Shown piece by piece: positions 1,605 through 58,224 of a stretch of 64,000 nt of DNA. Both the position numbers and the translations under genes were made by a program. Numbering within the stretch: the first letter of the stretch is position 1; each line of letters opens with the position of its first letter. The stretch is from IMG/VR virus record IMGVR_UViG_3300033066_002255. One strand, given 5' to 3'. The notes under the pieces are model-generated. The model had not been told where the DNA came from. It made no database searches and saw only the letters and a list, made by a program, of their open reading frames with translations. The DNA comes from a virus (taxonomy: Duplodnaviria; Caudoviricetes).

Positions 1605-1823
1605 ATGACTACTAAAAACTGGTCTGAGACTGAATTAAAAAATATGATTAAAGACATAGTTAAGCAAGAGCTTAAAGATGTAAAATCTGATATTGATAAA
1701 ATTAAAAAAAGTCATAAAGAATTAACTGATGAAGAAAAAGTAAAAGACATTGTTAGAGCAACTCTTGTCAATATGTATAAATACTTATGGCAAAAATCAG
1801 GAAATTATATAAAACAAATTTAA
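1605..1823 (+). CDS. Small hypothetical late protein with helical tag (start revised to ATG 1605)
   Basis: ATG directly after endolysin stop; ELKNMIKDIVKQEL motif. Confidence 0.7.
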   Translation: MTTKNWSETELKNMIKDIVKQELKDVKSDIDKIKKSHKELTDEEKVKDIVRATLVNMYKYLWQKSGNYIKQI

Positions 1824-1824
1824 A

Positions 1825-2556
1825 ATGAATAGAGAAAAGTTACAACAAATAATAAAAACTTCTGTGCAAGAAGTTGCACATGAATATCTTAAAGAGCTTA
1901 ATAGAATGAAGCAAATAAAAGATACTGATAATTTTCTTAATTCTTCAAGTATTAGTGAAGATGATTTTGATACTGTCTTTTTTCATGGAGGTCATAAACC
2001 TAAAACTGATGAGAAAAAATTAAAATCTCCAGTTACAATCAATGAAAATACAAACAATAACTTGAAAATTACAACAAGTGAAATCAAGGAATTTGAAAAT
2101 AGTTTTAAGGATATTTTAGACAAAACTCCTGGAGCTTCTATTGTATTTGATAAACAGAAAAATGGATTTTCTATTATAGCAACTAAAAGAACTGACGGTG
2201 TAGAAGCTAAGGCTTCTGGAATTTTAAATTTAGGAGATAAAGGTAAAATAATTTGGTCCTATTCTATCTTAAATGGTTTTAATGTTAATGCTCAAAATTT
2301 AAAATTGAGTGATAGTAATAAATTTATGTTTGAAGCTTTAACAAATCACTATAATGATTGGCAAAAAAATTGGAGAGATAAGCTAAATTTACCAAGTGCG
2401 CCTTCTTCTGAGGAAAATACAATAGCACCAGGAACAGATATGGGACAAGCAGATATGCCTTCAGCTCAAAATGCCTTAGGCCTTGGAGCTCAAAGTGCTC
2501 CAAGTGGAGGTGTAGCAGCACCAGAAGGTGGCGCTTCAGCAAATCCTGGAATTTAA
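1825..2556 (+). CDS. Hypothetical protein, putative virion-internal protein
   Basis: ORF; N-terminal KLQQIIKTSVQE tag; low-complexity C-terminus. Confidence 0.7.
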   Translation: MNREKLQQIIKTSVQEVAHEYLKELNRMKQIKDTDNFLNSSSISEDDFDTVFFHGGHKPKTDEKKLKSPVTINENTNNNLKITTSEIKEFENSFKDILDKTPGASIVFDKQKNGFSIIATKRTDGVEAKASGILNLGDKGKIIWSYSILNGFNVNAQNLKLSDSNKFMFEALTNHYNDWQKNWRDKLNLPSAPSSEENTIAPGTDMGQADMPSAQNALGLGAQSAPSGGVAAPEGGASANPGI

Positions 2557-2594
2557 TATTTACTTTTTTTTTATCATATCTTATATTTATTATT

Positions 2595-2885
2595 ATGCCT
2601 ACAATTCAGCAAATAATAAACAACCAAGAAACTTATAAGGATAAAATTTTTATTTTTCTTAAAGAAGAGGTAAAGCAAGTCAAGGGAGAACTAAAAAACA
2701 TTAATTCTTCTGATGAATTTATCATGAAAGAAAGAGAAAAACTTTTAAAGAAATTTAAAAGAACAAGTACCATAGAATCTATTAAAAAGTATTTTTTTCT
2801 TAGTAAGAAAAGAGATGATACTTATTATGTTTGGTGGGATGATTTAATTCAAGAAGTAATTATTAAAAGATATGACAAAAAATAG
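2595..2885 (+). CDS. Hypothetical protein
   Basis: ORF in operon context. Confidence 0.65.
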   Translation: MPTIQQIINNQETYKDKIFIFLKEEVKQVKGELKNINSSDEFIMKEREKLLKKFKRTSTIESIKKYFFLSKKRDDTYYVWWDDLIQEVIIKRYDKK

Positions 2886-3393
2886 AAAAAACACATTACC
2901 AATTTTAATTGACATTAAATTCAATGGTTCAATGAATCAATTTGAAGAAGTTTATGGAGAGCATGTTAAACATGCAGAAATAGAGCAAGAAAGCTACATT
3001 GACCTTAAGGGTATGATATTTGAAAAAATAAATCCCAATATTAAAATTAGAAAATTTAATAGAGAGAAACACACTTTAACTTTAAAGGCAGATATGCTTG
3101 AAAAAGAGTATCAATTTTTACAAGATATATTAGCTGGAAAAGTTATTGATGAAGTTAAAACTAACGACAAAAAAAAGAATCCAGAAGGTGTACAATATAT
3201 AGAAAAATTTAATTTTTTACATGATTTTATTATCTCTAAAGTTAAAATAATGACTGAAGAAGATTTATTAAAAATAAGAAAAGGTACAGTTTCTGAAGAA
3301 GATAATTCCTATGAAGATGATGAGAAAATAACAGAAGTTTCGTTGGATGAAGCAGAAGATGTAGAAGATTTTAGAGAAGAAGAATTTGAATAA
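2872..3393 (+). CDS. Hypothetical protein with acidic C-terminus
   Basis: ORF overlapping the previous stop. Confidence 0.7.
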   Translation: MTKNRKNTLPILIDIKFNGSMNQFEEVYGEHVKHAEIEQESYIDLKGMIFEKINPNIKIRKFNREKHTLTLKADMLEKEYQFLQDILAGKVIDEVKTNDKKKNPEGVQYIEKFNFLHDFIISKVKIMTEEDLLKIRKGTVSEEDNSYEDDEKITEVSLDEAEDVEDFREEEFE

Positions 3394-3414
3394 TATTTAT
3401 AGAAAAAAGTTAAT

Positions 3415-4242: not shown

Positions 4243-4743
4243 TTATAAATCATCTCCAAAATCAAAAGATTCTGTAAAAATAATCTTTAATTTAGCAGAT
4301 TGTAACAAGGTGCCAGCTTTTAGTTTTTCCAGATAATCCTTTGGAGAACCTGAAAGCTTTCTTGTTTTATCTTCTTGTATACTTTTAACAACTTGATTAA
4401 TTCTACAAGCTTCTATAAGAGACTTTTGACTATATGTTGAATTTACTAATTCAACCCAACCCTTTTCTATTGCAATATCAATATGCTGAGTGACATGGCA
4501 AGCCTTACATAAAATTGTACACTTTGAGTTTTCATTGTTTTCTTCATCAACTTCAATTACATGCATTGATAAGACCGACAAAATTTTACTATCATCCAGC
4601 GGTCTATATCCACATCCCATACAAACAGATTTACACTCTTTAAATGTTTTATTTCTTAGCTCTAAGTATTTTGCATCACCAATTGATTTCTTAAATTCAT
4701 TATCTGATGGTGAAATTCTTAGTTTTAAATCAAATTCTTCCAT
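4243..4743 (-). CDS. HNH-like zinc-binding protein (resembles IcmJ/DotN-type degenerate HNH)
   Basis: CMGCG...H...N...LCKACHVTQH pattern; TAATG coupling to the IF-3 gene. Confidence 0.55.
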   Translation of the reverse strand: MEEFDLKLRISPSDNEFKKSIGDAKYLELRNKTFKECKSVCMGCGYRPLDDSKILSVLSMHVIEVDEENNENSKCTILCKACHVTQHIDIAIEKGWVELVNSTYSQKSLIEACRINQVVKSIQEDKTRKLSGSPKDYLEKLKAGTLLQSAKLKIIFTESFDFGDDL

Positions 4744-5261
4744 TACTTACTTGTTGGCTTTGGCTTAATAATAAATTGCATTTTTTTACCCTCCATTTTA
4801 GGCAATCCTTCTGGAGTTCCGTATTCACTAAGTAAATCAGCAAATTTAAGCATGGTAATTTGGCCTTGCTCTTTAAAAACGATAGTTCTACCCTTAAACA
4901 GAAGCGTCACTTTAACTTTATCTCCATTTTCAAGAAATTCTTTACTTTTTCTTGCTTTGGTTTCCATATCATGGTCTCCAATATTAGGACTTAAGGACAT
5001 TTCTTTTGTTTGGCTTGTCTTTTGGTTTTTCTTGTTATCTTTCTCTTTTTTCTTTATTTCATAAAGAAATTTAGAATACTCCATAATTTTACAAACTACT
5101 GGAGTAGATTTATTCGAAATTTCGATTAAGTCTGCATTTAATTCTTTGGCTATAATTAAAGCTGACGCAATAGGATAAACTCCATCTGTATATCCTTCGG
5201 GTAGCGATACTAAACGAACTTCTTTCGCTTGTATTTTTTGGTTAATTTTGTGATTTTCCAA
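4743..5261 (-). CDS. infC: Translation initiation factor IF-3
   Basis: INQKIQAKEVRLV, PVVCKIMEYSKFLYE, IGDHDMETK, FLENGDKVKV.L.FKGR, PKMEGKKM motifs; non-ATG start. Confidence 0.93.
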   Translation of the reverse strand: MENHKINQKIQAKEVRLVSLPEGYTDGVYPIASALIIAKELNADLIEISNKSTPVVCKIMEYSKFLYEIKKKEKDNKKNQKTSQTKEMSLSPNIGDHDMETKARKSKEFLENGDKVKVTLLFKGRTIVFKEQGQITMLKFADLLSEYGTPEGLPKMEGKKMQFIIKPKPTSK

Positions 5262-5374: not shown

Positions 5375-6061
5375 ATGGAAAATAACTCAAGCAAAAAGAT
5401 AACAAAAAAAGAGCTTCAAAGCTATATTATCTCTGAGGCAATGAAAATGTTAAATGCTGGCGACGCTATGGAAGTAGAAATGAACACAATGGATAAAGAA
5501 GTTGGTTCAGATGGTAATCCAGGTACAGCTTTAGTTAAAACTAAAGAAAAAGGTGGTTTCGAAAAGAAAAACGATGCTCCTGATGCAGCAAAAAATATTG
5601 AAACTACAGAAGAAACTACTGAGGTAGAAATGAACCAAAATGATAATGAGGGTGGTTCTGATGAAAAAATTGCAGCTGCAGTTAAAGTTGATGCGACTAG
5701 TTCTACAAAAAAAGGAGATTCAATTGAAGGTATGCACAATGCTAAATTTGATAGCAAAGATAAAAATCCTTCTACAGATTCTTCAAAACCTTTTGAGGAT
5801 AAAAAAGAAAAAGTAGAAATGAACTCAATGGATGAAGATAGCGAAGGTGGAGCAAAAACTTTTGTTACAGCTGGTTCTGAAATGTCAAAAGGAGCTTCTA
5901 CTGGACAAGCAAAAGCAAATTATTCAGAAACTGCTAAAAACGAAAAAGAAACTGCTGAAACTATTGCAAAAGCAATTCAATTACCAGAAAGATTTGAAAA
6001 TAAAACAGCAATGTTAAAATTCATAAAAGAAGAAGCAGAAAAAATTGCTAAACTTATATAA
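5375..6061 (+). CDS. Acidic disordered protein, putative head-internal/core protein
   Basis: KITKKELQSYIISEA tag; repeated VEMN motif; TATTTAT at 5349. Confidence 0.7.
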   Translation: MENNSSKKITKKELQSYIISEAMKMLNAGDAMEVEMNTMDKEVGSDGNPGTALVKTKEKGGFEKKNDAPDAAKNIETTEETTEVEMNQNDNEGGSDEKIAAAVKVDATSSTKKGDSIEGMHNAKFDSKDKNPSTDSSKPFEDKKEKVEMNSMDEDSEGGAKTFVTAGSEMSKGASTGQAKANYSETAKNEKETAETIAKAIQLPERFENKTAMLKFIKEEAEKIAKLI

Positions 6062-6081: not shown

Positions 6082-6114
6082 AAAAAACCAAGAGCAATAC
6101 ACTCTTGGTTTTTT
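6082..6114 (+). terminator. Intrinsic terminator
   Basis: AAAAAACCAAGAG/CTCTTGGTTTTTT hairpin. Confidence 0.85.
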
Positions 6115-6148
6115 GTTTTATTATACCTATATTTTAAAAAAAATAATT

Positions 6149-8149: not shown

Positions 8150-8498
8150 AGATATCTTTATATATAACAATGAAGATGAGTTAATTTCTTATGTTGAATT
8201 AGACAATAATGAAATTGCTCATCAATATTTACTTAAAAATAGGGAGTTAACAAAATGCAACATCTTTCTAAATAACAAAAAGAAAGAAATAAATAAAGTT
8301 AAAATACTTTTTAACGAAGACTGTTCTTTAAGGCATTTTATTTTAGACGGAGAAGCAATCTGCAGAGTTGTTAGAAAAAATTCTCATTCTATATCTCCTC
8401 CAAATGAAGAAGCAAGAATAACATTAAAAGATAATAAAAAAATAGATTTTTTTTCTATCAAAAAAAACCTTATAGAAGATTGGCTTAAATTACTGTAA
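8136..8498 (+). CDS. Hypothetical protein
   Basis: ORF overlapping previous gene end. Confidence 0.65.
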   Translation: MKSYKDIFIYNNEDELISYVELDNNEIAHQYLLKNRELTKCNIFLNNKKKEINKVKILFNEDCSLRHFILDGEAICRVVRKNSHSISPPNEEARITLKDNKKIDFFSIKKNLIEDWLKLL

Positions 8499-8533
8499 AC
8501 ATTATTTTTCAGGATATTTATAAGAAAATATTA

Positions 8534-9007
8534 ATGAAATTTAAGGATTTATATTTAAGCATTTTAAGTGAAAATGAGAATTTTTTCTACGTAGATACAG
8601 ATTGCATATCTGATATCTTGGATGTAACTATTAAAAAATCAGAAGACTATGTAAAAATTGATTTCGCTACCAACTATGGTAAAAAAGGTCAATTAGTAGT
8701 AAAATATTCAAAATTTTTAAATTGGTATCTTAATCATATCAATGAATTTCCTGATGTTTTTAAATCCTTTACAAAAGAATATATTGCAAAATCTAAACAG
8801 ACTCCTGAGCTAGAAGAAGAGCCTGTTACAGAAATTGTTGATGAAGAAGGGAATTTAATTTCAAATGATGACAAGCCAAACAATTCAACAAATACAATGG
8901 TTGGCTCTAAAAATACTTGGGATTTAGAAAAAGTTTATAAATCAACTATACCAAAAAGTATTAGGTTCTACAGTGGGGACCTCGGCATCGGCATAATAAC
9001 CTGGTGA
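8534..9007 (+). CDS. Hypothetical late protein
   Basis: MKFKDLYLSILSE start; TATTTAT at 8515. Confidence 0.7.
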   Translation: MKFKDLYLSILSENENFFYVDTDCISDILDVTIKKSEDYVKIDFATNYGKKGQLVVKYSKFLNWYLNHINEFPDVFKSFTKEYIAKSKQTPELEEEPVTEIVDEEGNLISNDDKPNNSTNTMVGSKNTWDLEKVYKSTIPKSIRFYSGDLGIGIITW

Positions 9008-9069
9008 TTGGAGTTATTATTTGGTAAATTCATTTTTATTTACTATTTATTATAAAATAGTTTTTAAAC

Positions 9070-10380: not shown

Positions 10381-10947
10381 ATGATATTAAGTGAATCATA
10401 TAAAAAGAGACTGCAAGAGCTTTCAGGTATTCAAGATGATACATATTCTTCATACAAAGGACTTGAGCCATATCAAAAAAGAAAAGAAGATTTCATAAAT
10501 TCAATAAAAAGCTTTTCAGATATTAATGATGATAAAATAAAAGAATTTATTTCTTACTTTGGGTATGAAGGATTTAATAGCGAAGAAGAAGCATATATCG
10601 ACTTGAAAGAAAAAATATCTTTTTACAAGGAAATGCCTAATCCAGTTATATTATATCGTGCAATTGGTGTAAAAAACAAAAAGATGATAAAAAATGACGA
10701 CTTAGGAGAGCATTATACACCTTATAAATGGAATATTGATACTGATATGTTAATGTCAATTGGATATGAAAATTGGGATGAAAATACGAAGCCTTATATA
10801 ATGGAGGTTTCAGTGCCGCATTCTGAAATAGATATTATTCAAACTATTATTCAAAATTTATCATTTCCAAATGAACACGAAATAAATTTAAAAAACAGCG
10901 GAAAAGGTGCTAAGTTTATAAAAGCATATAAATTAAAAGGATTTTAA
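10381..10947 (+). CDS. Putative ADP-ribosyltransferase-fold protein (R-S-E-like) with N-terminal head-targeting-like tag
   Basis: LYRAIGV...LGEHYT...FPNEHEINL (ExE); N-terminus MILSESYKKRLQELSGI. Confidence 0.5.
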   Translation: MILSESYKKRLQELSGIQDDTYSSYKGLEPYQKRKEDFINSIKSFSDINDDKIKEFISYFGYEGFNSEEEAYIDLKEKISFYKEMPNPVILYRAIGVKNKKMIKNDDLGEHYTPYKWNIDTDMLMSIGYENWDENTKPYIMEVSVPHSEIDIIQTIIQNLSFPNEHEINLKNSGKGAKFIKAYKLKGF

Positions 10948-10965: not shown

Positions 10966-11427
10966 ATGAAAACAGAAAAAGATAGAATGAAAGAATTGGT
11001 TAAAATGTTCTCAAAAAAAGATGAAATATTTGCTGAGAAATCTACAAAAGATACAACCAATGAAAATCTAAAAAAAGAATATAATAGATTGCAGAATCTT
11101 GCTTCTGGTAAGGCAAATTCTACATTTAAGGAAAATTACATGAATACTGCTGATTTTGGTACTGGTGGAAATAAAGGTAAAACTGTTTCTTCTATAGCAG
11201 ATGAAATGTATAGCAATCCATCTTTATCATATCAACCTATTAGACAGCCTTTACAACCAGACGAGGGATTTGAATTAGCTATCAAAAGAGCTTTAAAATC
11301 AGGCGCTCCAGTTGATAATATGGGATTTTATGATGAAGTAAATTGGCATTTAATGAGTCTTGGTTTTCCAGCTAAAAATTCAATTGATATAAAATCAGCT
11401 ATTTTAAAACAGTTTGATAAAGACTAA
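10966..11427 (+). CDS. Hypothetical late protein
   Basis: ORF; DRMKELV and EYNRLQNLASG motifs. Confidence 0.7.
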   Translation: MKTEKDRMKELVKMFSKKDEIFAEKSTKDTTNENLKKEYNRLQNLASGKANSTFKENYMNTADFGTGGNKGKTVSSIADEMYSNPSLSYQPIRQPLQPDEGFELAIKRALKSGAPVDNMGFYDEVNWHLMSLGFPAKNSIDIKSAILKQFDKD

Positions 11428-13483: not shown

Positions 13484-15139
13484 ATGTCCAAACAAGAAGA
13501 AATATACCCTGAAGGTTTTCCAAGACAAATGGAAAGCTTTAGTGAAGAGCAAGAGTTCAAACAGTCTACTTTGGAGATTATAAAAAATACTGCATTAGAG
13601 ACAACCGAAAAAGCGTTTGAGGAGCTTGGATATAACAAACAAGATAGTAGAGCTGGAGAGTATGGTAATGGAGAATCATATGGTGCAGGAACATCTCTTG
13701 ACCATTTTAATGTAAGAATTACATCTAATCCAAGTACAAATACTTACTTTGAAAAAATAATTTATTTTGGTGGTAAAAAAGCTATTAGCGAAGTAACCAT
13801 TGGATGGGATGCTAAAAACAAAACTATTCAAATGGCTTATAAAACTACAGAGTTTAGTGCTTTTAGAGGCTATGGTTCTGATGTAGGCCCTATGTTAATA
13901 AACAAGAGAATAAATTTTGTTATAAAAGATAAAAATAAGTTTAAAGAAAATTTAACTAAGCTTTTTAAGAATTACGCTGAAAAAGAAATTGGTTATATAA
14001 CAAGTACTAAAATTGGTATTGAAGATAAAACAGAAAAAAGTATAAACTCAATGGTAGAAACAAATATGAAAAAATTCACTTTAAAAGACCTTATGACTTC
14101 ATCAGGAGATGAATTATCAAACACTCTTGAAAATTATGTCAATGAAAACAAAGAAGGCAAAGAAAATAAGGCAAAAACTAATAACCCTGAGGTTATTGCT
14201 GCAAATTCTCCTGGTAAACTCTTATTTGATGACATTGAAGATATAAAAGATGATACAATTAAGACTGCTGCTAAAAATAAATTAAAAAAGTTTGGAGTAA
14301 TTGCATTAAATGAATTAAAACCATCTGAGAAAAAGACATTCTTTGAAGAACTTGAAAAAGAATTACAAATTGATGAAATTACTGCTTCAGGAGGAAATGC
14401 TGCTGGAGGAGCTTTTTTAACTCCTATGGCATTTAAACCAGGAGGAGATTTAAATTTAGGTCAAAGAAAATTAGAAGATACTAATTATGCCAAAGGAAAA
14501 AAAGAAAGACCATCAGTTAAAAAATCCATGGAAGAAGGAGATAGTTTCTGGAGAACTGTAGAGTTAAATCCAGGCTCTGGTTATGTCCCTAAAGGTATGG
14601 AAAAAAATTATGTTTCTGGAGAACATAATAAAAAAATAAATGAAAGCATAGAAAAGGTTAATGATAAGCTTAATAAACCAGAGCTTATAAAAGAATCATT
14701 ATTAAAAAGAAAATTCATTACAATGAACGAAAACGAAGAAAAAGGTGTAAATAAAAGATATATTGTTACTGAGCAAAGGAGTGAAGATGAACAAAATGAA
14801 AGATGGAAAAAATTAGCTATGTTCGAAACTTATACTACAATAAAAGACGCTGAAAATTTACACGAATGTGGATGCGAAGATATTGATAATTCTCATGAAG
14901 TTACAATGAATCAAGGAGAAGCTGAAAATGAAAAAGAATTTTTACAAAGAAATTCTGATGCAGAAGTTGGAGGAGAAGTTGACGGAAGAGTTGTTTTAAT
15001 GGTTCCTAAACCAAATTCTCTTTCTAATGCAATGTTTAAAGTTTTTGAAGATGACTATTTAAATGAAAATAAAACTTATATTTTAGATTTAAACTCTGGT
15101 AACTTAGTGTTAAATCCAAACTTTAAAGTAAAAAAATAA
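13484..15139 (+). CDS. Large hypothetical late protein, possibly virion-internal and protease-processed
   Basis: TATTTAT at 13461; multiple (I/L/M/V)xE sites; ERWKKLAM motif. Confidence 0.7.
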   Translation: MSKQEEIYPEGFPRQMESFSEEQEFKQSTLEIIKNTALETTEKAFEELGYNKQDSRAGEYGNGESYGAGTSLDHFNVRITSNPSTNTYFEKIIYFGGKKAISEVTIGWDAKNKTIQMAYKTTEFSAFRGYGSDVGPMLINKRINFVIKDKNKFKENLTKLFKNYAEKEIGYITSTKIGIEDKTEKSINSMVETNMKKFTLKDLMTSSGDELSNTLENYVNENKEGKENKAKTNNPEVIAANSPGKLLFDDIEDIKDDTIKTAAKNKLKKFGVIALNELKPSEKKTFFEELEKELQIDEITASGGNAAGGAFLTPMAFKPGGDLNLGQRKLEDTNYAKGKKERPSVKKSMEEGDSFWRTVELNPGSGYVPKGMEKNYVSGEHNKKINESIEKVNDKLNKPELIKESLLKRKFITMNENEEKGVNKRYIVTEQRSEDEQNERWKKLAMFETYTTIKDAENLHECGCEDIDNSHEVTMNQGEAENEKEFLQRNSDAEVGGEVDGRVVLMVPKPNSLSNAMFKVFEDDYLNENKTYILDLNSGNLVLNPNFKVKK

Positions 15140-23700: not shown

Positions 23701-23781
23701 ATATTTATTTCAATTATTAATGGTTAATTATTTTAAATATAGAAACGTAAAATAATAAAGTAAATAGTTTTTTAAAAAAAT

Positions 23782-29827: not shown

Positions 29828-30286
29828 ATGAATATAAGGAAAATTATTAGAGAAGTTTTGACTAATCATATAAAGAATTTAAATAAACCATATATAGTTA
29901 ATATTAATGGTGAAATGTTTTATCACCAAACCAATTGTAATAATATAAAATCCATAAAAGATAATGGCTTTAAAAGTGATTTACATAATGGTCAAGCAAG
30001 ATTTACTCATGGAGTATATTTTTTAAATCATCCAGAAGGAAGATATGGAGATTGTACGTTACAAGCTAATATTTATGGAAATTTTTTAGATTTCAGAGAT
30101 GAAAATGATATTTTGGGAGATAAATGGATTAATTTTAGAGACTCTTATGAATGGGATAATTATATAGATTTAACAATTAAAATGAGACAAGACAATAAAG
30201 ATATAGATGGTCTTATTTTTGATAATCTATTAGTTGTTTGGTATCCAGAAAAATGTATTAAAAATATTTCTGAATATAATTTGTAA
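29828..30286 (+). CDS. ADP-ribosyltransferase-fold (ART-PolyVal-like) protein with N-terminal tag
   Basis: FYHQT...IKDNGF...GVYF...YG...DIDGLI...VVWYP; N-terminus MNIRKIIREVL; TATTTAT at 29817. Confidence 0.55.
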   Translation: MNIRKIIREVLTNHIKNLNKPYIVNINGEMFYHQTNCNNIKSIKDNGFKSDLHNGQARFTHGVYFLNHPEGRYGDCTLQANIYGNFLDFRDENDILGDKWINFRDSYEWDNYIDLTIKMRQDNKDIDGLIFDNLLVVWYPEKCIKNISEYNL

Positions 30287-37384: not shown

Positions 37385-37385
37385 T

Positions 37386-39555: not shown

Positions 39556-39557
39556 AT

Positions 39558-40684: not shown

Positions 40685-41059
40685 ATGTCAAACAAGAAAA
40701 TTATTAGCCCAAGTACAATCAAACAAGCTATTGTTGAAGAGGCTCTTAGAATCAAAAGAAAAAAAGAACTTTACGAGTCAGTAAAGCAAATCAATTCAGA
40801 GTTGAAGCAACTAAACGAAGTTGGGATGGTTGGAAGTTTTGGATTCGCAAATCCAAGTGATAATATCAACAAATCTAAAACTGGTTTTGTTAATGATTTT
40901 CAACACATTTCTCATGTAGCTGAATTAGCTGCTGAATTTGCAGCAGTAGACAATTCTTCATCTATAAACGAAGATGCTTTAAATGAAGTAGATAAGTTAA
41001 AAGAAGAAATAAAAAAGCTTCAAGAAGAAAATGAAGCATTGAAAAATTCAAAAAAATAA
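40685..41059 (+). CDS. Hypothetical late protein with helical tag
   Basis: IKQAIVEEA; LNE/INE sites; TATTTAT at 40658. Confidence 0.7.
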   Translation: MSNKKIISPSTIKQAIVEEALRIKRKKELYESVKQINSELKQLNEVGMVGSFGFANPSDNINKSKTGFVNDFQHISHVAELAAEFAAVDNSSSINEDALNEVDKLKEEIKKLQEENEALKNSKK

Positions 41060-41077: not shown

Positions 41078-41923
41078 ATGAAAATCAAAAAGTCAGATAT
41101 AGACAAAATTATTAAAGAAGAATTCCAAAGAATGCTTCAAAAGAAACAATTAACTTCAAAATTAGCTAAAATTAATGAATCTATAGCTTCTATGGAAGCT
41201 GAAGATGCTAAACTTAATGAGGTTGAAGCAGGTGGCGAAGAAAAAGTTTCTTCACATGCTTGGACAGGAGAAGCTAATGGTGATGTAAAATATAAACCAA
41301 AATTTGAAAAAATTGGTACTCATCTTAAAGAAGATGATGAAGATGGAATGTCATCTGAAATGAACGCTGAAGTAGAAGAAAATCCAATGGGTGAATTTGA
41401 ATCTAAATTTGCTGAAATCGGAAAAGCTATTGATGCTAAATTAGCATCTGAAATGGGTGGAAGTTCTGCAGCAGCAGATGCAACTGGAACAGAAATGCCA
41501 GCTGATTCAAATGATGTAGATGATGATTTTGAAGAAGTTGAAGTTTCTGATGAAGATAATGATGGAGAAGAAAAAGAAACTGATATTGATGAATATCATG
41601 AGATAGTTGGTGGCGTTGGAGCAGAACATGGTATGACTGCTGATGATGCTATGAAACATAAAGAAGTTAAAGAAAGTGTAGAAGAACCACTTGAAGGTCA
41701 TAGTGTAGCTCAAGAAGTTGCTGCAGATGATGTAAATGATAACATGGAAAAAGATACTCATGTTAAAGAAAACAAAAACAATAAAGGTTCTTTAATTTCT
41801 GAAGTAAAATCAACTGAAAAAAATATCTTCACTGAAGGTGTTGATGCGGCTAAAAAAGCTAAGTTGATGGAAGAATTTAATAGAATGAAAAAATTTGCAG
41901 GTCTTTCTAAAGACGAAGAATAA
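41078..41923 (+). CDS. Acidic putative prohead core/internal protein
   Basis: MKIKKSDIDKIIKEE N-tag and EEFNRMKKFAGL C-tag. Confidence 0.7.
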   Translation: MKIKKSDIDKIIKEEFQRMLQKKQLTSKLAKINESIASMEAEDAKLNEVEAGGEEKVSSHAWTGEANGDVKYKPKFEKIGTHLKEDDEDGMSSEMNAEVEENPMGEFESKFAEIGKAIDAKLASEMGGSSAAADATGTEMPADSNDVDDDFEEVEVSDEDNDGEEKETDIDEYHEIVGGVGAEHGMTADDAMKHKEVKESVEEPLEGHSVAQEVAADDVNDNMEKDTHVKENKNNKGSLISEVKSTEKNIFTEGVDAAKKAKLMEEFNRMKKFAGLSKDEE

Positions 41924-42582: not shown

Positions 42583-42596
42583 AGCTGGATTTTTTT
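42567..42596. terminator. Bidirectional terminator
   Basis: AAAAAATCCAGC/GCTGGATTTTTT. Confidence 0.8.
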
Positions 42597-42792: not shown

Positions 42793-42796
42793 ACTA

Positions 42797-43000
42797 TTAT
42801 TTATTTTCGTTTAACATTTCTCTTCCATCATTGGTAAGTAATTTACCTGAATCTTTGTGCATTATTTCAGTTGTTGGCTTTTTTAAATTAGCTTGTTTAA
42901 CTGCTTCTGCATATACCTTATCTGGAGTCATAAGTTCATTTACAACTTTTTTATTAGGAGAATTTTTTCCCCCTAAATTTGGATAAAAATAATCTATCAT
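42797..43000 (-). CDS. Small hypothetical protein
   Basis: Ends LTNDGREMLNENK; late motif at 43016-43022. Confidence 0.65.
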   Translation of the reverse strand: MIDYFYPNLGGKNSPNKKVVNELMTPDKVYAEAVKQANLKKPTTEIMHKDSGKLLTNDGREMLNENK

Positions 43001-43964: not shown

Positions 43965-45059
43965 ATGTCTGATAATATGTCTGCTAAAATAAATATAGAT
44001 GAGCTTAAAGCCATGATAGCTAATGAAATAAAAGAAATTGGCCTACATTCAGTGCTTGGTAATGATGCTATAGAAAAAGTTAAAGATAAAGTTGTAAAAA
44101 CTTATAATCATGAAAAAGCAAAAAACGATGTTCCAGAACTTATACCTGAAGCAATAGCTCCTATTCCAGGAGAAACACCTTCTTCTGGTTTAAATCAAAC
44201 TACTCCTGAAACTACTATAGATTCAACAGTTAATACTGATTCTACTAATTTAATTTCTAATAAAAATATAGATTCTGGAACAAATGGAAATATTCCAGCT
44301 TATACTCCAGAATTACCTGAATTTATGAATAACATAGAACCTGGTAAGGTGATTGTATTTAGTCAAAATGAATTAAGCGAAGGAGGAGAGAATTTAAGCA
44401 ATAAACCGCTTAGAACCTATGAAAATCCTGATTTAAGAAAATCTATGCATGATTTATGGATGGAAAATGGAAAAAGAAAAGCAGATGTATATATTGCTAA
44501 ATTAGAAAAAATAGGTACTTTAGAATTTAATTATGCAAATGGAACAACTCAATTTGTTGAAAATAGATTTGAGCCTGATTTTGAAGCACAAGCAAAATAT
44601 AAAGAGAATCCTTATATGGCAGATAATGCTGGTCCAGCAAAACCTGGTGCATTAGATATAAATGGACAGCCAAATATAATGGCACAAGGAATTTCTTCTA
44701 TAGATATGGAAAGAGTTGTTGGAGACATTGTAAAAAATATCCTTCAAAATTATTTTCTTACAAACAAAACAAGAGCTGTAAATTCAGTACTTGAAGTTTC
44801 TCCAGATGAATATAATGGATTTAATACATCTCAAGCAGTGAAACCTATGGAAGAATCATTTAATATTAAAATGATTGACCTTATTAATGATTATAATAAA
44901 ATTGATACGCCAAATAGATTAAAAGAAGCTATCGAAAAAAATGATAGAAGTCTATTAATCAAAGAAAACGAAGAAGTACAAGAGTGGGAAATAGAAGGAA
45001 ATTCTTATTTCTTACCAGTTAATAAAATTTCAACAAGAAAATGTTATATTAAAAACTAA
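43965..45059 (+). CDS. Hypothetical late protein with N-terminal tag
   Basis: INIDELKAMIANEIKE; TATTTAT at 43946. Confidence 0.7.
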   Translation: MSDNMSAKINIDELKAMIANEIKEIGLHSVLGNDAIEKVKDKVVKTYNHEKAKNDVPELIPEAIAPIPGETPSSGLNQTTPETTIDSTVNTDSTNLISNKNIDSGTNGNIPAYTPELPEFMNNIEPGKVIVFSQNELSEGGENLSNKPLRTYENPDLRKSMHDLWMENGKRKADVYIAKLEKIGTLEFNYANGTTQFVENRFEPDFEAQAKYKENPYMADNAGPAKPGALDINGQPNIMAQGISSIDMERVVGDIVKNILQNYFLTNKTRAVNSVLEVSPDEYNGFNTSQAVKPMEESFNIKMIDLINDYNKIDTPNRLKEAIEKNDRSLLIKENEEVQEWEIEGNSYFLPVNKISTRKCYIKN

Positions 45060-50730: not shown

Positions 50731-51453
50731 ATGAGTTCAAAAAAAGTTACAATTTCTGAATTAAAAAATTATATTATTTCAGAAGCTAAAAAATTATATG
50801 ATTTAGAAATCTTAAAAGAGGAAAAGCGTAAAATTGAAAAAGCTTTATCTGAAATTGATAAAAGAGCTATGAATGCTGCCAAGCAAGATATAGAAAAAGA
50901 TGGCGGTAAATTTGAACCTCTTGGTAAAAATAAATTTGAAAAAAACATTGACAAAAAAGAGCTTAAAAAAGCTATGAGTCCTGAAAAAATGGAAGAAAAA
51001 GTTAATCCTTGGGCTGTTTGTCATGCTTCTACTGGTCCTGAAAAAGATAAAAAATTTGAAAAATGTGTAATGGATGTAAAAAAGAAAGAACACATAAAAG
51101 AAGAAACTCCTTCTGCAGGGCTATCTAAAAAACAAAAATCTGATGTTGTTAAAAGTACTAAATCTGGTGAAGATATTGGAAATAAAGGTAAAGGATTTAA
51201 AGATGTTGCAGCAAAAGCAGAAAAAGAATATGGAAGCAAAGAAAAGGGAGAAAAAGTAGCAGCAGCTTCAATGTGGAAAAATATAAAACGTGAGTCCGAC
51301 AATGATTCAGAGTTTAAAAAATTTAAATTTAAAATTAAACATGATAAAGGATATATAAATATTAGTACTACTGCTACTGATTTAGAGACTGCAAAAAAGA
51401 AAATAATGAATGCAGAAGGTTGCCCAGAAAGTGCTTTAACATATTTAGGTTAA
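50731..51453 (+). CDS. Basic, modular putative internal head protein
   Basis: KVTISELKNYIISEA tag; modules separated by xxE sites. Confidence 0.65.
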   Translation: MSSKKVTISELKNYIISEAKKLYDLEILKEEKRKIEKALSEIDKRAMNAAKQDIEKDGGKFEPLGKNKFEKNIDKKELKKAMSPEKMEEKVNPWAVCHASTGPEKDKKFEKCVMDVKKKEHIKEETPSAGLSKKQKSDVVKSTKSGEDIGNKGKGFKDVAAKAEKEYGSKEKGEKVAAASMWKNIKRESDNDSEFKKFKFKIKHDKGYINISTTATDLETAKKKIMNAEGCPESALTYLG

Positions 51454-51558: not shown

Positions 51559-52227
51559 ATGATAAACGATTCAAAATACATTATACGTGAGTTTTACGCT
51601 TTCAATGCAAACCCTCAATTAATTAAAGAGGCAGAAGAAAGAGGTAAACCATTAGTTATGACTGGTATATTGCAGAAAGCAGATACAGTAAATAGAAACG
51701 GTAGAATTTACCCATTCAATATTCTTAAACGTGAAGTTGATAAATACATGGAGCTTGTAGAAAACAATACTGCAGGTGGTGAATTAGACCACCCTGATAG
51801 TGCTGTTGTTTCTTTAGCTAATGTATCACATAGAGTTATTGATATGTGGTGGCAAGGAACTGACCTTTATGGAAAAGTTTTAGTAGCTGAAGATGTAGAA
51901 GCTGGAAAAAAATTAAAAGGTTTATTAAAAGCTGGATTTACTTTAGGAATTTCTTCAAGAGGTGTTGGTTCAGTTAAAAGTCAAGGAGGAAAAGATATTG
52001 TACAAGAAGATTTTGAATTAATTGCATTTGACTTTGTATCATCTCCTTCAACTCCTGGAGCTTATTTATTTAAAGAAGGTAAAGAAGTATTTACTCGTGG
52101 AATGGTTCCTTTAAAGGCTGAACACTATAGTTTTATTACTCCAAAAGGAGAAGAATTAAATGAAGAATACGAAAAGTATACAAAATTATTTGAATTAAGT
52201 AATAAAGATTTTTGGAAAAATCTTTAA
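51559..52227 (+). CDS. Prohead core protease (T4 gp21-like)
   Basis: NRNGRIYP, GELDHP, VSH, GISSRGVGS, FDFVSSPSTPGAY. Confidence 0.95.
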   Translation: MINDSKYIIREFYAFNANPQLIKEAEERGKPLVMTGILQKADTVNRNGRIYPFNILKREVDKYMELVENNTAGGELDHPDSAVVSLANVSHRVIDMWWQGTDLYGKVLVAEDVEAGKKLKGLLKAGFTLGISSRGVGSVKSQGGKDIVQEDFELIAFDFVSSPSTPGAYLFKEGKEVFTRGMVPLKAEHYSFITPKGEELNEEYEKYTKLFELSNKDFWKNL

Positions 52228-52290: not shown

Positions 52291-53733
52291 ATGAGCGAAA
52301 AAAACAAAAAAACTCCACTTGAAGAAGCAGTCTTAAATTATGCAGAGATACAAAAATTTGCAGAAGAACATGCTGCTGCTCAATTAAAGGAGCAAGTTTC
52401 TGAAAAAATTAAAGAAATTTTTGAAGATAAATTAAACGAAGAAATTACTATTACTATTTCTAATGATGGTGAAAATGTTGAAGTTGCTAAAGACGGAGAT
52501 GTAATGTCATCAATGAATGATTTAGATAATAATATTGAAAACGGTTCAGAAGAAATGGGTCTTGAATCTCCCGAAGATAAAAATTCAGATGATGATTTAG
52601 ATTCAGATGAATTTATAGTTTCAGATGAAAATGATGAGATTTCTCTTGAAGAAGAAACTATGGAAGAAACAATTCAAAATACAAATATGGAAGAAATGAA
52701 TAAAATTACAATGGAAGATGCAGCAGCACAACCAGCAGCAGCAACAACACAAACAGCTGCTCCAGTAGCAGATGCAACAGCAGCTCCAGCAGTAGACGCA
52801 GCAGCTCCAGTAGATGGAACAGAAACAGCAGCAACACCTGAAGAAGCTATGCCAGAATTGTTATCAAAACTTGATACATTAATTAATGTATTATTACAAC
52901 AACAAGGTGCAGCACCTGAAAATGATGCAGCTACAGCAGGAGAAGATGGAGAATTTGAAGTAATTGATGATGAAGCAGGCGCAACAGCTCCAGCAGGTCC
53001 AGTAGCAGATGCAACAGCAACTCCAGCTCCAGCACCAATGCAAGAAGAAGAAATTGAAATAGTTGATTTTGATGGAGATAAAGAACATGAAAATTTCATT
53101 GATGAAATGGAAAATGAAATGTTAGAAATTGTTGATGAAGATGAAGTGCCTATGGAAGGTATGTCAATGGAAGAAACAAGAGGTCTTAGCTTTACATCAA
53201 AAAGAACAGGAGACAAAACTCTTAAAATGGATACAATGAAAGATGAAAAAGGTCATCATGCACCTGTAACATCTTTAAAAGAAAATAAAGCTCAACAAGA
53301 GTCTAAAGTAGACGAGCTCATTAAGGAAAACGTTGGTTTAAAAAACACGGTTAAAGAACTTCAAAAAGATAAAAAAGATTTTGAGGTAGCTTTTATCGAA
53401 CTCAGAAAACAGTTTAACGAAATGCAAAATTTTAATGGAAAGTTAGCATTAGTAAACAGAGTGTTAATGAATGGTGGACTTACAACAGAGGAAAAAGTAA
53501 GAATCTGTGAACAATTTGACCAAGCAGCAACATTTGATGAAGCAAATAAACTTTTTAAAACTATTATGAAAGAAAGCACTCACAAGGTTGCTGCAAACAC
53601 AGTAGATAAATTAAAAGGAGCTTCTACTAATACTATAAAACCTAGAAGTACATCAGAGCCTCTTTACGAAAGTGTAGAAGCAAAAAGATTAAAAAGACTT
53701 GCGGGAATCGGTAAAACTGAAGAAGAGAACTAA
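52291..53733 (+). CDS. Prohead scaffold protein (gp22-like position)
   Basis: Between protease and capsid genes; acidic, Ala/Pro-rich linker, coiled coil, C-terminal KRLKRLAGI. Confidence 0.8.
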   Translation: MSEKNKKTPLEEAVLNYAEIQKFAEEHAAAQLKEQVSEKIKEIFEDKLNEEITITISNDGENVEVAKDGDVMSSMNDLDNNIENGSEEMGLESPEDKNSDDDLDSDEFIVSDENDEISLEEETMEETIQNTNMEEMNKITMEDAAAQPAAATTQTAAPVADATAAPAVDAAAPVDGTETAATPEEAMPELLSKLDTLINVLLQQQGAAPENDAATAGEDGEFEVIDDEAGATAPAGPVADATATPAPAPMQEEEIEIVDFDGDKEHENFIDEMENEMLEIVDEDEVPMEGMSMEETRGLSFTSKRTGDKTLKMDTMKDEKGHHAPVTSLKENKAQQESKVDELIKENVGLKNTVKELQKDKKDFEVAFIELRKQFNEMQNFNGKLALVNRVLMNGGLTTEEKVRICEQFDQAATFDEANKLFKTIMKESTHKVAANTVDKLKGASTNTIKPRSTSEPLYESVEAKRLKRLAGIGKTEEEN

Positions 53734-53821: not shown

Positions 53822-55480
53822 ATGAGTGAATTATTAAATAGCGGTAAGGTTGGTCTTACAATTTTCAAAACATTAGCAGAGCAAAGAACTGCTATCATGA
53901 ACAACTGGAAAGATTCTGGTTTGTTAGAAGGTTTGAAAGGAATGAAGAAATCTAACATCGCTCAGCTTTTAGAAAGCCAAGCACAATCAATGTTAAACGA
54001 GGTTACTCTTGATTCTTCTGCAGGAAGATTTGATACAGTAGCATTCCCAATCGTAAGAAGAGTTTTCTCAAGATTGTTAGCAAACGAGATTGTTTCAGTA
54101 CAACCTCTTGCTTTACCTTCTGGATTATTATTCTACATGGATGCGAGAGTATCTTTCAATGGAACTGATACAACATTTAACAACCCAGTATATCCTAACT
54201 TCCCTGATAACTCAGGTGCAGGTTCTTATAGCAAAGTAGCGCCAGCTAACACTGCTAACGGACAAGCTGGTCCAGTATTCGCAGATACAACTGCATACGA
54301 AAGATTCTATAACAACAGAGGTTTCGACTTATCATTTGGTACAGGTGAAACTGCAATGGGTACAACTAATGGTGCTCTTGCAAGTACTTGGACAGGTGGT
54401 ATCAAAGCGTTAAACTTCGCTTTAGGTACAGGATTTAACGTATCAAAACAACAATCATCAGCATCTTTATATTTATCTGCTGTAACAGCGATTTATTATT
54501 CAGGTTCTAACGGTAATACTCTTATCGTAGCAGCTGGTGGAAGAGTACCTTTCTACTCTCAAATCCAAACTTGGACTCAAGACCAATTCGCTAATAACGA
54601 ATTAGATGCAGTAGTTGACTTAAGAGTTAACGGTGTATATGGTTCTGATTTCAATCCAGCGATGTTAAACAACGGTGCTGGTACATTTGGAGCATCTTAC
54701 ACAATCAATATGGTTCCTGCTTACCAAGTTTATAATGACCTTGAAGCAAAATCAGAAATGGGAGAAATCACAATCAGATTCTCAAGTGTAACTGTAAATA
54801 CAATTACAAGAAAATTAAGAGCACACTGGACTCCAGAATTAGCTCAAGATTTAGAAGCTTACCATTCAATTGATGCTGAAGCTGAATTAACAGCTTTATT
54901 ATCTGAGCACATTGCTGCTGAGATTGATAGAGAAATCATCATCGAATTAATTAATGGTGCTCCTTTCAGAGCTAGATGGGATTACAAAGGGTTATCTAAC
55001 AATGCTAACTTCTTCGGTACTCAAAAAGACTGGAACCAAACTTTAATCACAAGAATTAACGAGATTTCTGCGCAAATCCACAAGGCTACTTTAAGAGGTG
55101 GTGCTAACTGGGTAGTTTGTTCTGCTGAAGCTGGTGCAATCTTCGATGATTTAGAATACTTCCACGTGGATGGTTCTGCTCAACCAGAGTCTGAAAAATA
55201 TAACTTAGGTGTTGAAAAAATTGGTAACTTAGGTTCAAGATATGTGGTTTACAAAGACCCTTATTTACCTGCGCCAATCGTATTAATCGGTCACAAAGGT
55301 TCTACCTTCTTAGAGGCTGGTTTCATCTACGCACCTTATATTCCACTTCAGTTAACTCAAACAATCTATGACCCTAACGATTTAACACCAAGAAAAGGTA
55401 TTATGACTCGTTACGCTAAGAAGATGGTTAACAACAGATTCTACGGTGTTATCTACATTGATAATATCAATACTTACTAA
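53822..55480 (+). CDS. Major capsid protein (T4 gp23-like)
   Basis: FPIVRRVF..L.A.EIVSVQP...PSGLLFY, TRKLRA.WTPELAQDL.AYH.IDAEAEL, YAPYIPL, P.KGIMTRY. Confidence 0.97.
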   Translation: MSELLNSGKVGLTIFKTLAEQRTAIMNNWKDSGLLEGLKGMKKSNIAQLLESQAQSMLNEVTLDSSAGRFDTVAFPIVRRVFSRLLANEIVSVQPLALPSGLLFYMDARVSFNGTDTTFNNPVYPNFPDNSGAGSYSKVAPANTANGQAGPVFADTTAYERFYNNRGFDLSFGTGETAMGTTNGALASTWTGGIKALNFALGTGFNVSKQQSSASLYLSAVTAIYYSGSNGNTLIVAAGGRVPFYSQIQTWTQDQFANNELDAVVDLRVNGVYGSDFNPAMLNNGAGTFGASYTINMVPAYQVYNDLEAKSEMGEITIRFSSVTVNTITRKLRAHWTPELAQDLEAYHSIDAEAELTALLSEHIAAEIDREIIIELINGAPFRARWDYKGLSNNANFFGTQKDWNQTLITRINEISAQIHKATLRGGANWVVCSAEAGAIFDDLEYFHVDGSAQPESEKYNLGVEKIGNLGSRYVVYKDPYLPAPIVLIGHKGSTFLEAGFIYAPYIPLQLTQTIYDPNDLTPRKGIMTRYAKKMVNNRFYGVIYIDNINTY

Positions 55481-56368: not shown

Positions 56369-56407
56369 ATTCTTATTCGAAGATTTTTACTTTTATGTAA
56401 ACCATAA

Positions 56408-56947
56408 TTAATATTCTGCTAATGAAAATATATTTTCTGAATACGGTTTAAGTTTTTCAGCACCATTAAGAAAGCTAAGCCCAACCATAAAATAAAAACC
56501 TGATATATTTCCCCCTTGACGTTTAATTAATTCAGCTGTAGCAGCTGCAGTTCCTCCAGTAGCCAATAAATCATCATGAATTAATACATTCATACCAGGC
56601 TCAATTGCGTCTTCATTCATTTCAATTTTACTTGACCCATATTCAAGGTCATATTCAATACTAACTGTTTTAAAAGGAAGTTTTCCTGGCTTTCTAATGG
56701 GTATAAATGGTACTCTTAATTTATTAGCTAAAAGAAAACCAAAGAAAAAACCACGACTTTCTGCTCCAGCAATAGCATCTACTTTAATACCTTTATTCAA
56801 TATTTCAAGATATAACTGAGAAACAATGGCCTCACATAATTCAGCATCTTTTAAAACTGGAGTAATATCCTTAAATAAAATCCCTGGTTTAGGAAAATCT
56901 TGTACATCTCTTATTGTTTCTTTAACTCTTTTTTGAAGTTCTTTCAT
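56408..56947 (-). CDS. apt: Adenine phosphoribosyltransferase
   Basis: DFPKPGILFKDITP, ESRGF, RKPGKLP, YDLEYG, HDDLLATGGT. Confidence 0.95.
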   Translation of the reverse strand: MKELQKRVKETIRDVQDFPKPGILFKDITPVLKDAELCEAIVSQLYLEILNKGIKVDAIAGAESRGFFFGFLLANKLRVPFIPIRKPGKLPFKTVSIEYDLEYGSSKIEMNEDAIEPGMNVLIHDDLLATGGTAAATAELIKRQGGNISGFYFMVGLSFLNGAEKLKPYSENIFSLAEY

Positions 56948-57473
56948 TTTGTTCTTTTATTTGTCTTGTTAATTCATAAAATCTTGATAAGAATTTAGCT
57001 TTAGCTTCTTCTTGAGACCAATAAGTAAATTCTAATTTTTGATTTACATGAAATCTTTCATATTCATATTGAAGTAACTCATAATCTACCTTATGAACTC
57101 TTTCTGTAAGAGGATAGGTAAGATTATATTTTTTAAATATAATACTCAATAGATTTTCCTCGATTTCAACATATTGAGGAATTTGCATTTTAATCGGTTT
57201 AGGTAAATCAATTAAATAAGCTTCTGAAGCATCATGCATCAATAATTCTAATTGTTCTTGAATAGTCTTGCCTTTTAAAGAACATAAAACTGAATGTTGA
57301 GCTACAGAGTAAAATTTAGGACAATGACCTCCATATCTACAAAGCATTGATAAAGCATGTGCTATATCATCTATTTTAATATCCTCTTCCTTTGGGGCGA
57401 AGACATCAAATAAAACTCCTGAACGAACTAAGATAGCTCTTGGGTTTAATTTTTTAGCCTCTAATAATTTCAT
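56922..57473 (-). CDS. HD-domain 5'-deoxynucleotidase (YfbR/YfdR-like)
   Basis: DIAHALS..CRYGGH...YSVAQHS, LMHDASEAY..D. Confidence 0.85.
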   Translation of the reverse strand: MKLLEAKKLNPRAILVRSGVLFDVFAPKEEDIKIDDIAHALSMLCRYGGHCPKFYSVAQHSVLCSLKGKTIQEQLELLMHDASEAYLIDLPKPIKMQIPQYVEIEENLLSIIFKKYNLTYPLTERVHKVDYELLQYEYERFHVNQKLEFTYWSQEEAKAKFLSRFYELTRQIKEQNERTSKKS

Positions 57474-57492
57474 AAGCTATGTGTTTGAATAA

Positions 57493-57524
57493 CAAAAGTA
57501 TAAATTTATTTTGATATATGCAAA
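57493..57524 (-). promoter_or_regulatory. Bacteroidota primary-sigma promoter
   Basis: TTTG-N20-TACTTTTG upstream of the HD/apt operon. Confidence 0.8.
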
Positions 57525-57561
57525 AAGAGTTGTTTTTTTTTGTTATTTATATATAAAAACA

Positions 57562-58224
57562 ATGGATATCAGGCTAATAATAAGGGAAGAACTTGAAAAA
57601 ATTATGAGTCCAAAGACTTCAGAAGAAGTTTTTGATAGAGATATTTCATATATAAAAGGTTTTAAACTTTTAAAAAAAGAATCTAAAAACAATTCTGATA
57701 TATGGGTTTTTGAACATAGAACAAAAGATTATTTTATAAGATTTTATTTACATAAAAATAAATCTAGTAGAGAATGGACGGGCAAAATATTTGTTTATTG
57801 GAAAGAATATTCTCCTGATTTTACAAGTGCAAAAGGAAAAGATTTTGAATATGCTTTTGGTCCATTTAATTCATATAAAGAAATGATTTTTAATTTAAAT
57901 AATAAATTAAAAAACAATCCTTTATTCTCAAAAGAGATTTATTTAGATGATACAGAAACACAATTCGATAATGATTCTATAGAAATGCTAAAAAGATTAA
58001 TATCAATAAAAGATAAACTTTATAAAGTAAAAGATAAAAAATTTAATAAATTAAAAAAAATATATAATAAAATACACAACTTTAAAGATGATGTTCAATT
58101 TAAAGAATTTTTAAATAAAGAATACCCAAAAGAAGAAGATAAACAAACTTTATTAATTATACTTCAAGAAATTCATCAAATAGATTTTTACTTACATAAA
58201 GAAGACTTAGAAGGTTTATTTTAA
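57562..58224 (+). CDS. Hypothetical late protein with tag (start revised to ATG 57562)
   Basis: MDIRLIIREELEKIM; TATTTAT at 57544. Confidence 0.7.
   Translation: MDIRLIIREELEKIMSPKTSEEVFDRDISYIKGFKLLKKESKNNSDIWVFEHRTKDYFIRFYLHKNKSSREWTGKIFVYWKEYSPDFTSAKGKDFEYAFGPFNSYKEMIFNLNNKLKNNPLFSKEIYLDDTETQFDNDSIEMLKRLISIKDKLYKVKDKKFNKLKKIYNKIHNFKDDVQFKEFLNKEYPKEEDKQTLLIILQEIHQIDFYLHKEDLEGLF

Follow-up and report, generated by a model that had tools for sequence, protein, structure and literature searches.

A 64,000-nucleotide stretch of DNA from an uncultured virus of the Caudoviricetes (IMG/VR record IMGVR_UViG_3300033066_002255; the whole stretch is called the window below) encodes late proteins of unrelated sequence that carry one of two short peptides at an end of the chain. 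Leader A is an N-terminal amphipathic helix often ending in (I/L)-x-E, and leader B has a core with the form of the C-terminal tip of the head scaffold protein. We are highly confident that these tags are real and portable and that they are under selection at the level of the protein. Judged by analogy, by the identity with the scaffold tail and by the genomic context, we hold with moderate confidence that they direct proteins into the capsid and are removed by the prohead protease. The window has a GC content of 28%, and its proteins are on record from a contig of 159,239 bp. A syntenic IMG/VR contig of 153 kb has a CheckV completeness of only 52%, so the genome is probably jumbo-sized. The source is an uncultured AT-rich myophage of the T4 superfamily, whose relatives look like genomes of about 300 kb. 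For comparisons we used eight IMG/VR loci that are close syntenic relatives (L002-L009) and a set of distant ones (L010-L015 and Flavobacterium phage immuto, L001).

Both leaders occur on orthologs of the same protein in two unrelated families of the window. Protein 10381 (10381..10947, plus strand; cargo 1) begins with leader B, MILSESYKKRLQELSGI (nt 10381-10431), and we collected 100 homologs of it from a set of 5.8 billion proteins. These homologs keep one body (DTYSSFKG.KPYQQRK..FINSIKSF...) while the N terminus in front of it varies: 21 carry leader B (M.LSESYK.RL.ELAGI), about 40 carry a leader A-type helix (M.(D/E)L(R/K)KFI.TTIRE(F/Y)LNEN or shorter relatives), and the rest have neither. 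The gene was not found in five related contigs. Protein 29828 (29828..30286, plus strand; cargo 2) carries a variant of leader A, MNIRKIIREVLTNHIKNL (nt 29828-29881), and its homologs have leader A, leader B (3 of 13) or no leader, the peptides being the same two that stand on the homologs of 10381. The presence of both leaders on orthologs of the same enzyme speaks for a common destination of the two tags. The original prediction had proposed portable tags on unrelated late proteins, and this is borne out by the exchanges on these two ortholog sets and by the occurrence of canonical leaders on many bodies.

The bodies of both cargo proteins resemble ADP-ribosyltransferases (ARTs). The AlphaFold2 (AF2) model of 10381 has a predicted local distance difference test score (pLDDT) of 91.5 and shows a short leader helix. 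With VIA, ART toxins came out on top, over residues 85-188 and with Z scores of 5-6.5 only, and the Foldseek E value was 0.24 or worse. In the homologs E165 and E167 (E-x-E) are invariant and R93 is present in at least 90%; no S-T-S motif was identified in this family. The model and these residues suggest an ART-like C-terminal domain. For 29828, which belongs to the H-Y clade, the model (pLDDT 86.7) has a detached N-terminal helix (residues 3-18) outside the fold, and VIA aligned model residues 16-152 to the diphtheria toxin catalytic domain (Z 9.4, root-mean-square deviation 3.4 over 120-126 residues) and to PARP1 (Z 7.8). H33 and Y64, of the H and Y NAD-binding motifs, are invariant among the homologs, as is D127; the Glu in VVWYPE is not conserved and is replaced by N or D. 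The Pfam matches are weak (Tox-ART-HYD1 0.027, PARP 0.044). As modelled, the body of 29828 has the ART beta-sandwich fold. Three IMG/VR proteins with canonical leader A matched PF18760 (ART-PolyVal), two of them above the cut-off. This family was described from virion-embedded, injected polyvalent proteins, and phage ARTs have been argued to be often packaged in the head, like T4 Alt (PMC9503650). The ART-PolyVal cargo is thus in circumstantial agreement with packaging.

Both cargo genes adjoin homing endonuclease genes. An HNH gene (phrog_559; 9070-10368) lies just upstream of 10381, and a gene with GIY-YIG, NUMOD3 and AP2 domains (28743-29777) is oriented divergently to 29828, itself the one gene on the plus strand within a long block of minus-strand genes. 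A megablast search of phage records with 6113-10368, upstream of 10381, gave no DNA match.

To count the canonical type of leader A (M..LRKFI.TTIREYLNEN), we searched IMG/VR with the pattern TIRE[YF]LNEN and clustered the bodies behind it by BLASTP (E < 1e-4). The pattern had 43 matches. The 41 for which an ATG start could be set have the motif at residues 10-19 of the open reading frame (ORF), and in the remaining 2, which have no upstream ATG (L031 is cut at the locus end), it lies at most 9 residues from the first readable codon. The canonical leader stands before 28 unrelated body clusters, and nearly all of these genes follow ATATTTATATATAAA. Near-identical 18-mers precede unrelated bodies, such as MELRKFISTIIREYLNEN on a 10381-type and MEFKKFIATTIIEYLNEN on a 29828-type protein. 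The codons of both leaders differ synonymously between copies while the peptide is kept, and it is therefore the peptide that is selected rather than a DNA site. The minus strand of the window (42595-43000) also encodes two small paralogs (65 and 67 amino acids); 42595 begins with MAIWIDTEFLNEN, which ends like canonical leader A, and 42797, which has a TATTTAT upstream, ends in REMLNENK.

The window contains a head-assembly module with the gene order protease, scaffold, capsid. The gp21-type prohead (head maturation) protease (51559..52227, plus strand) matches phrog_207 (E 4.5e-52) and is 73-80% identical to its relatives in L002-L009. Its N-terminal KYIIREF resembles the core of the helix tags and is conserved as KYII(R/S/T)EF; the whole start (51559-51600), M.N..KYII(R/S/T)EF, is close to NYIISEA, the leader core of protein 50731 described below, and it recalls the 'LIE-9' site near the N terminus of T4 gp21. 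From this likeness, the protease may carry a targeting and cleavage leader of its own. The next gene, in the position of gp22, encodes an acidic, coiled protein (52291..53733, plus strand) without any Pfam or PHROG match, which we assigned as the head scaffold protein from its place between the protease and capsid genes and its synteny with L001-L015. The gp23-type major capsid protein (53822..55480, plus strand) matches T4-like capsid genes in tblastn searches; its best annotated relatives are those of Flavobacterium phage immuto and Rhodothermus phage RM378, and thousands of T4-like phages rank behind these two. In T4, gp21 cuts after (L/I)-x-E, and the gp23 propeptide of 65 residues is removed at FLTE65 (PMC9026906). 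The predicted maturation site of the window's capsid protein is MLNE60/V (nt 53993-54001; the slash marks the cut). E60 aligns with E65 of T4 gp23 (FLTE/A), and the Glu at the cleavage position is invariant in an alignment of 11 sequences. Canonical leader A ends in LNE, as does MLNE60. The T4-type head assembly on which the original prediction relied is therefore present, with both the protease and the aligned capsid cleavage Glu.

The scaffold protein ends in the peptide that forms the core of leader B. We defined a strict form of this second motif, R...[LIFM][AS]G[ILMV], which is present in exactly three window proteins, where shuffling predicts 0.19 and none of 300 shuffles reached three. 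All three copies are terminal: one at the C terminus of the scaffold (RLKRLAGI, residues 466-473 of 480, 53686..53709, plus strand; 7 residues from the end), one at the C terminus of 41078 (5 residues from the end) and one at the N terminus of 10381 (residues 10-17). In all 15 scaffold homologs, including that of phage immuto, R(L/M/N/W)xx(L/I)AG(I/L/M) lies 1-7 residues from the C-terminal end, and this tip is kept although the remainder of the scaffold diverges to about 25% identity. A tblastn search of phage records with the last 111 residues of the scaffold gave no match.

Leader B has the consensus M.LSESYK.R(L/I)xEL(A/S)G(I/V/L), within which the core R..(L/F)(A/S)G(I/L) has the form of the scaffold tip. 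It heads at least six unrelated bodies in IMG/VR, among them proteins of 990, 586, 250 and 377 amino acids. In all 26 distinct contexts of the N-terminal leader the core begins at residue 9-11. Position 4 of the core is Glu, which creates an (L/I)-x-E, in 25 of these 26 contexts, versus K, Q or R in 12 of the 13 C-terminal copies (the scaffolds and 41078). Four of the N-terminal contexts were retrieved with a DNA pattern that required the core Glu and many others are orthologs, so that the independent families number only about four to six. One IMG/VR locus (L017:4533-11697) has four consecutive large genes, for proteins of 990, 586, 333 and 387 amino acids, that begin with leaders B, B, A and A, respectively; the 333-residue protein ends in a 10381-type body, and the run looks like an array of tagged cargo genes. 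The proposal that two tags mimic the scaffold holds for leader B, whereas hidden Markov models (HMMs) of leader A gave no significant match to any scaffold protein, and we rejected the helix tag as a mimic of a scaffold helix.

Further window proteins carry one of these peptides, and PHROG and Pfam searches with the tagged proteins were essentially blank. A second acidic, core-like protein (41078; 41078..41923, plus strand) has the N-terminal helix MKIKKSDIDKIIKEEF and the C-terminal hook RMKKFAGL (nt 41882-41905). Only its C-terminal 13 residues align with the scaffold, and its homolog in L004 keeps the hook as RMRKFAGL; IMG/VR yielded no close relatives of it. The gene immediately before that of the protease encodes a variable protein in the position of a prohead core protein (50731; 50731..51453, plus strand), with the leader KVTISELKNYIISEAKKLY (about nt 50743-50802). 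Within this family residues 1-30 are 38-61% identical, the bodies are 8-19% identical and range from 134 to 334 amino acids in relatives, and the gene is duplicated in L007. The acidic protein 5375 (5375..6061, plus strand) has a leader of the same type, KITKKELQSYIISEAMKML (about nt 5396-5455). In BLASTP only the first 23 residues of 5375 and 50731 align, at 61% identity (E 2e-5), and 4 of the 6 codons of their shared YIISEA differ synonymously. A homolog of 5375 in L027 keeps LSELKKMIIAEAEKI. The body of 5375 contains three copies of V(E/D)MN.(M/N/Q)D (AMEVEMNTMD, TEVEMNQND and KVEMNSMD), all of which are kept in the L027 homolog (L027:2998-3663) with Asp for Glu in two; these repeats are unlikely to be Glu-specific cut sites.

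Two more late proteins complete the supported set. Protein 57562 (57562..58224, plus strand) starts with MDIRLIIREELEKI, and among five orthologs identity is 63% over the first 10 residues, 15-25% over the 20 that follow and 40-66% over the body. Protein 1825 (1825..2556, plus strand) has the leader MNREKLQQIIKTSVQEV followed by a linker, and its distant homologs consist of the body alone, of the body with a short leader (MNTIKNIIKEVAEEY) or of the body with a long extension of helix plus linker.

Tagged genes share a putative late promoter. The motif TATTTAT is located 7-58 nt (mostly 11-29 nt) upstream of 24 of the 78 window genes, including those for the protease, the scaffold, the capsid protein and an endolysin. 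As had been claimed, tagged genes follow it directly or within an operon: all 11 are in TATTTAT-led units, and 8 of the 11 have the motif within 60 nt upstream, compared with 16 of the 67 other genes (Fisher p = 0.0026). The canonical leader A genes in IMG/VR (L029-L068) are preceded by the longer ATATTTATATATAAA(A)GAAAA. We consider TATTTAT a strong candidate for the late promoter of the whole clade.

The original prediction named about 15 tagged proteins. Every peptide that it quoted is present at its gene and the gene starts stand, apart from two that we corrected because the ATG at 1605 is inside ORF 1563 and the ATG at 57562 inside ORF 57511. About eight of the proteins are well supported (the scaffold, 41078, 10381, 29828, 50731, 5375, 57562 and 1825), four are only plausible and two were rejected. 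Of the plausible ones, 43965, 40685 and 1605 were picked out by resemblance. Protein 43965 (43965..45059, plus strand) begins with INIDELKAMIANEI, and its N terminus is no more conserved than the remainder of the protein. Protein 40685 (40685..41059, plus strand), with the N terminus STIKQAIVEEA, is encoded by the first gene of the late unit 40685-41078-41926, with TATTTAT at -27; a position-specific scoring matrix (PSSM) of tags, described below, gave it p of about 0.03-0.08. The same matrix gave p 0.003-0.017 for protein 1605 (1605..1823, plus strand), which begins with ELKNMIKDIVKQE. Protein 8534 (8534..9007, plus strand) begins with MKFKDLYLSILSE; its MK(I/F)KD(F/L/Y)YL..L(N/S)E recurs in almost every one of 98 homologs, among which no leader was exchanged or lost, and may simply belong to the fold. 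The two rejected proteins had been listed as further, looser examples of the second motif, first written as R(L/M/W)xx(L/F)(A/S)G, which held for the three terminal copies described above but failed for 10966 and 13484. We rejected both as tagged since their peptides are internal and fall outside the strict motif: NRLQNLASG of 10966 (10966..11427, plus strand) occupies residues 40-48 of 153, with another residue in place of the motif's Gly, and RWKKLAM of 13484 (13484..15139, plus strand), at residue 440 of 551, lacks the Gly.

If the tags are loading signals, they would act during prohead assembly by attaching the proteins that bear them to the scaffold core or to the inside of the capsid shell, with leader B and the C terminus of 41078 using the site of the scaffold tail. 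The prohead protease would then cut after the tag Glu and free the cargo inside the head. From there the cargo, including the two ART-fold proteins, would be ejected with the DNA into the next host, like T4 Alt and IPI-III.

Several observations weigh against this interpretation, and many of them would be expected if most of the listed tags were an artefact of composition, that is, N-terminal helices rich in Lys, Ile, Asn and Glu in which a hydrophobic-x-Glu arises by chance at 28% GC and only a few tags are genuine. The helix tags are heterogeneous within the window, and most of their pairwise similarities are at chance level: in an all-against-all local alignment the N termini score like shuffled ones, with the exception of 5375/50731 (68 versus a null maximum of 44) and, as a borderline case, 43965/50731 (42). 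The loose pattern [ILMV][ILVMA]xE matches the first 40 residues of 28 of the 78 window proteins, and the prediction of a shared helix ending in Glu stands for a core set, picked out by comparison with relatives, and not for the loose pattern. IISE, IIRE, IIKE and LNE stand at tag ends, but (I/L)-x-E is common in proteins of this composition (about 1.7 per 100 residues), which makes the site at the helix end weak evidence; (I/L)-x-E lies within 4 residues of the chosen body anchor in only 22 of 40 distinct leader A tags. A cut at the internal Glu of leader B would leave LAGI on the cargo, which makes release by such a cut speculative, and T4 gp22 lacks a LAGI-type C terminus, so the scaffold-tail hook has no T4 precedent. 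Canonical leader A is absent from the window proteins according to the HMMs, which were built from the 10381 homologs and from the IMG/VR census and matched no window N terminus significantly except that of 29828. An ungapped PSSM made only from the tags of metagenomic homologs placed 14 of 78 window N termini above the 95th percentile of internal windows (3.9 expected, p = 3e-5). Its top list also includes the Rossmann loop of an epimerase and a thioredoxin, and because it shifts the register and ranks enzymes among its matches, it is unable to assign single genes. The relatives of 43965 in L002-L004 lose the Glu (MIGDQV), and the N terminus of 8534 never varies or swaps. Tags were also said to be off metabolic genes; the loose helix motif is indeed rarer on recognisable enzymes (2 of 20, versus 19 of 58 other proteins; p = 0.04), but it is not absent from them. 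These enzymes are an epimerase, glycosyltransferases, methyltransferases, a DegT aminotransferase, a thioredoxin, PhoH, IF-3 and a phosphoribosyltransferase. Chance composition does apply as a partial explanation to 1605, 40685, 8534 and 43965. As an account of most of the tags we find it improbable: it fails for the A, B and leaderless versions of two ortholog sets, the 28 bodies behind one 18-mer, the 5375/50731 match, the profiles with conserved islands, the statistics of the strict motif and the enrichment of the late motif.

Modularity says nothing about the destination of the tagged proteins. The tags could be real portable modules aimed not at the capsid but at another shared phage partner (for instance a chaperone, an ART inhibitor or a component of the tail or the ejection machinery), or they could be removable autoinhibitory propeptides; the likeness to the scaffold would then reflect a shared partner outside the shell. 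Much of the cargo has toxin-like ART folds, which often need neutralising partners, and AF2 places both tags as detached helices at lower confidence. We nevertheless regard a non-capsid address as unlikely. The scaffold segment that leader B copies is the only one invariant in the clade and lies at the extreme end of the protein, and in other tailed phages and in herpesviruses the C terminus of the scaffold is, as is generally known, the coat-binding element. Moreover, genes of the 50731 leader family immediately precede that of the protease, the place of gp67/gp68 in T4, and co-expression with the head genes from late promoters fits capsid loading. Finally, the shared ends might be DNA-level joints of cassette exchange, conserved for recombination in homing-endonuclease or integron-like shuffling. 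The homing endonuclease genes next to both ART cargo genes would suit this, as would the leaders of T4 ipII and ipIII, which are identical at 27 of 27 bases. Yet the tag codons in our set differ synonymously over a retained peptide, the likeness between leader B and the scaffold tail is confined to the amino acid sequence, and the tag is always in frame, at residues 9-19. A DNA-level origin of the shared ends is thus highly improbable, and we ruled it out as their explanation on the synonymous differences; recombination at the leader may well aid shuffling without replacing a role at the protein level.

The closest parallel to a capsid-loading function is the capsid-targeting sequence (CTS) of T4, which directs IPI, IPII, IPIII and Alt and is removed by gp21 after (L/I)-x-E. 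The protease is of the same family, and so is the capsid protein with its aligned Glu. In both phages short N-terminal leaders are common to unrelated late proteins, with (I/L)-x-E as a candidate cleavage site at the tag ends here, and the cargo in the window includes ART folds, like T4 Alt. T4 ipII and ipIII share the leader KTYQEFIAE, and by eye the leader of the 5375 family (YIISEA; MIIAEAEKI in L027) resembles T4 FIAEA and the start of gp22, MLKEQLIAEA. It has been stated that the CTS may serve T4-like phages as a general route for loading diverse proteins (PMC3012670, PMC9026906). Whereas T4 has one leader, two alternative leaders are exchanged here on orthologs, and whereas gp22 has no hook at the scaffold tip, leader B copies such a tip and 41078 bears the same hook at its C terminus. 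The candidate cargo families in IMG/VR are also far more numerous than in T4, at least 28 for leader A and at least six for leader B. In giant phages (phiKZ, 201phi2-1, SPN3US), many head and ejection proteins are cut after Glu by a diverged gp21 homolog (PMC9026906). Their propeptides are long and specific to a family, and no description presents them as short leaders that unrelated proteins share and exchange.

Other parallels are more distant. In the scaffold tails of P22 gp8 and herpesvirus pre-VP22a/UL26, as in the window, a short end peptide is the most conserved part of a fast-evolving scaffold, and just as one tail serves both the protease and the scaffold of herpesviruses, another core protein here, 41078, has the tail of the scaffold. 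These tails have no sequence relation to that of the window, where the tail has also moved to the N terminus of enzymes; the comparison draws on general knowledge. The cargo-loading peptides of encapsulins are short and portable and address diverse cargo into the interior of an HK97-fold shell. They may offer a conceptual parallel, being portable and usable at either terminus, but their consensus differs, encapsulins have no protease step, and the context here is a phage. A literature search found no description of the leaders or of a LAGI-type scaffold tail. Relative to the T4 CTS, we did not find described a leader copied from the scaffold tip, a hook at either terminus, the exchange of leaders on orthologs, or the scale.

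Beyond the tagged genes, the window encodes a full-length translation initiation factor IF-3 (4743-5261, minus strand; IF3_N and IF3_C, E 1e-22 to 1e-28) and a large sugar-modification block (22477-40262, minus strand) with a DegT aminotransferase, an NAD epimerase, a GT11 fucosyltransferase-like gene, three methyltransferases, several GT2 genes and one GT1 gene, followed by a thioredoxin. A tail-sheath-like gene begins at 61744.

If the tags are loading signals, they would provide a sequence label for the head-carried and probably injected proteins of abundant, uncultured large phages, and the tagged genes would list candidate effectors of host takeover and counter-defence, many of them ART-like. 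If the scaffold-tail tag works as proposed, cargo would enter the head by means of a copy of the peptide through which the scaffold grips the shell, a logic known from encapsulins and herpesvirus proteases and not described for T4-like phages. More tentatively, and with some doubt on our part, the LAGI-type hook could be a docking peptide for the capsid interior that is independent of the terminus and common to scaffold and cargo, which together with the helix leader would make up a two-address loading code in a very large clade of uncultured jumbo T4-like phages. Were such a code to exist, a repertoire of injected effectors rich in ARTs would be readable from the genome through the two leaders.

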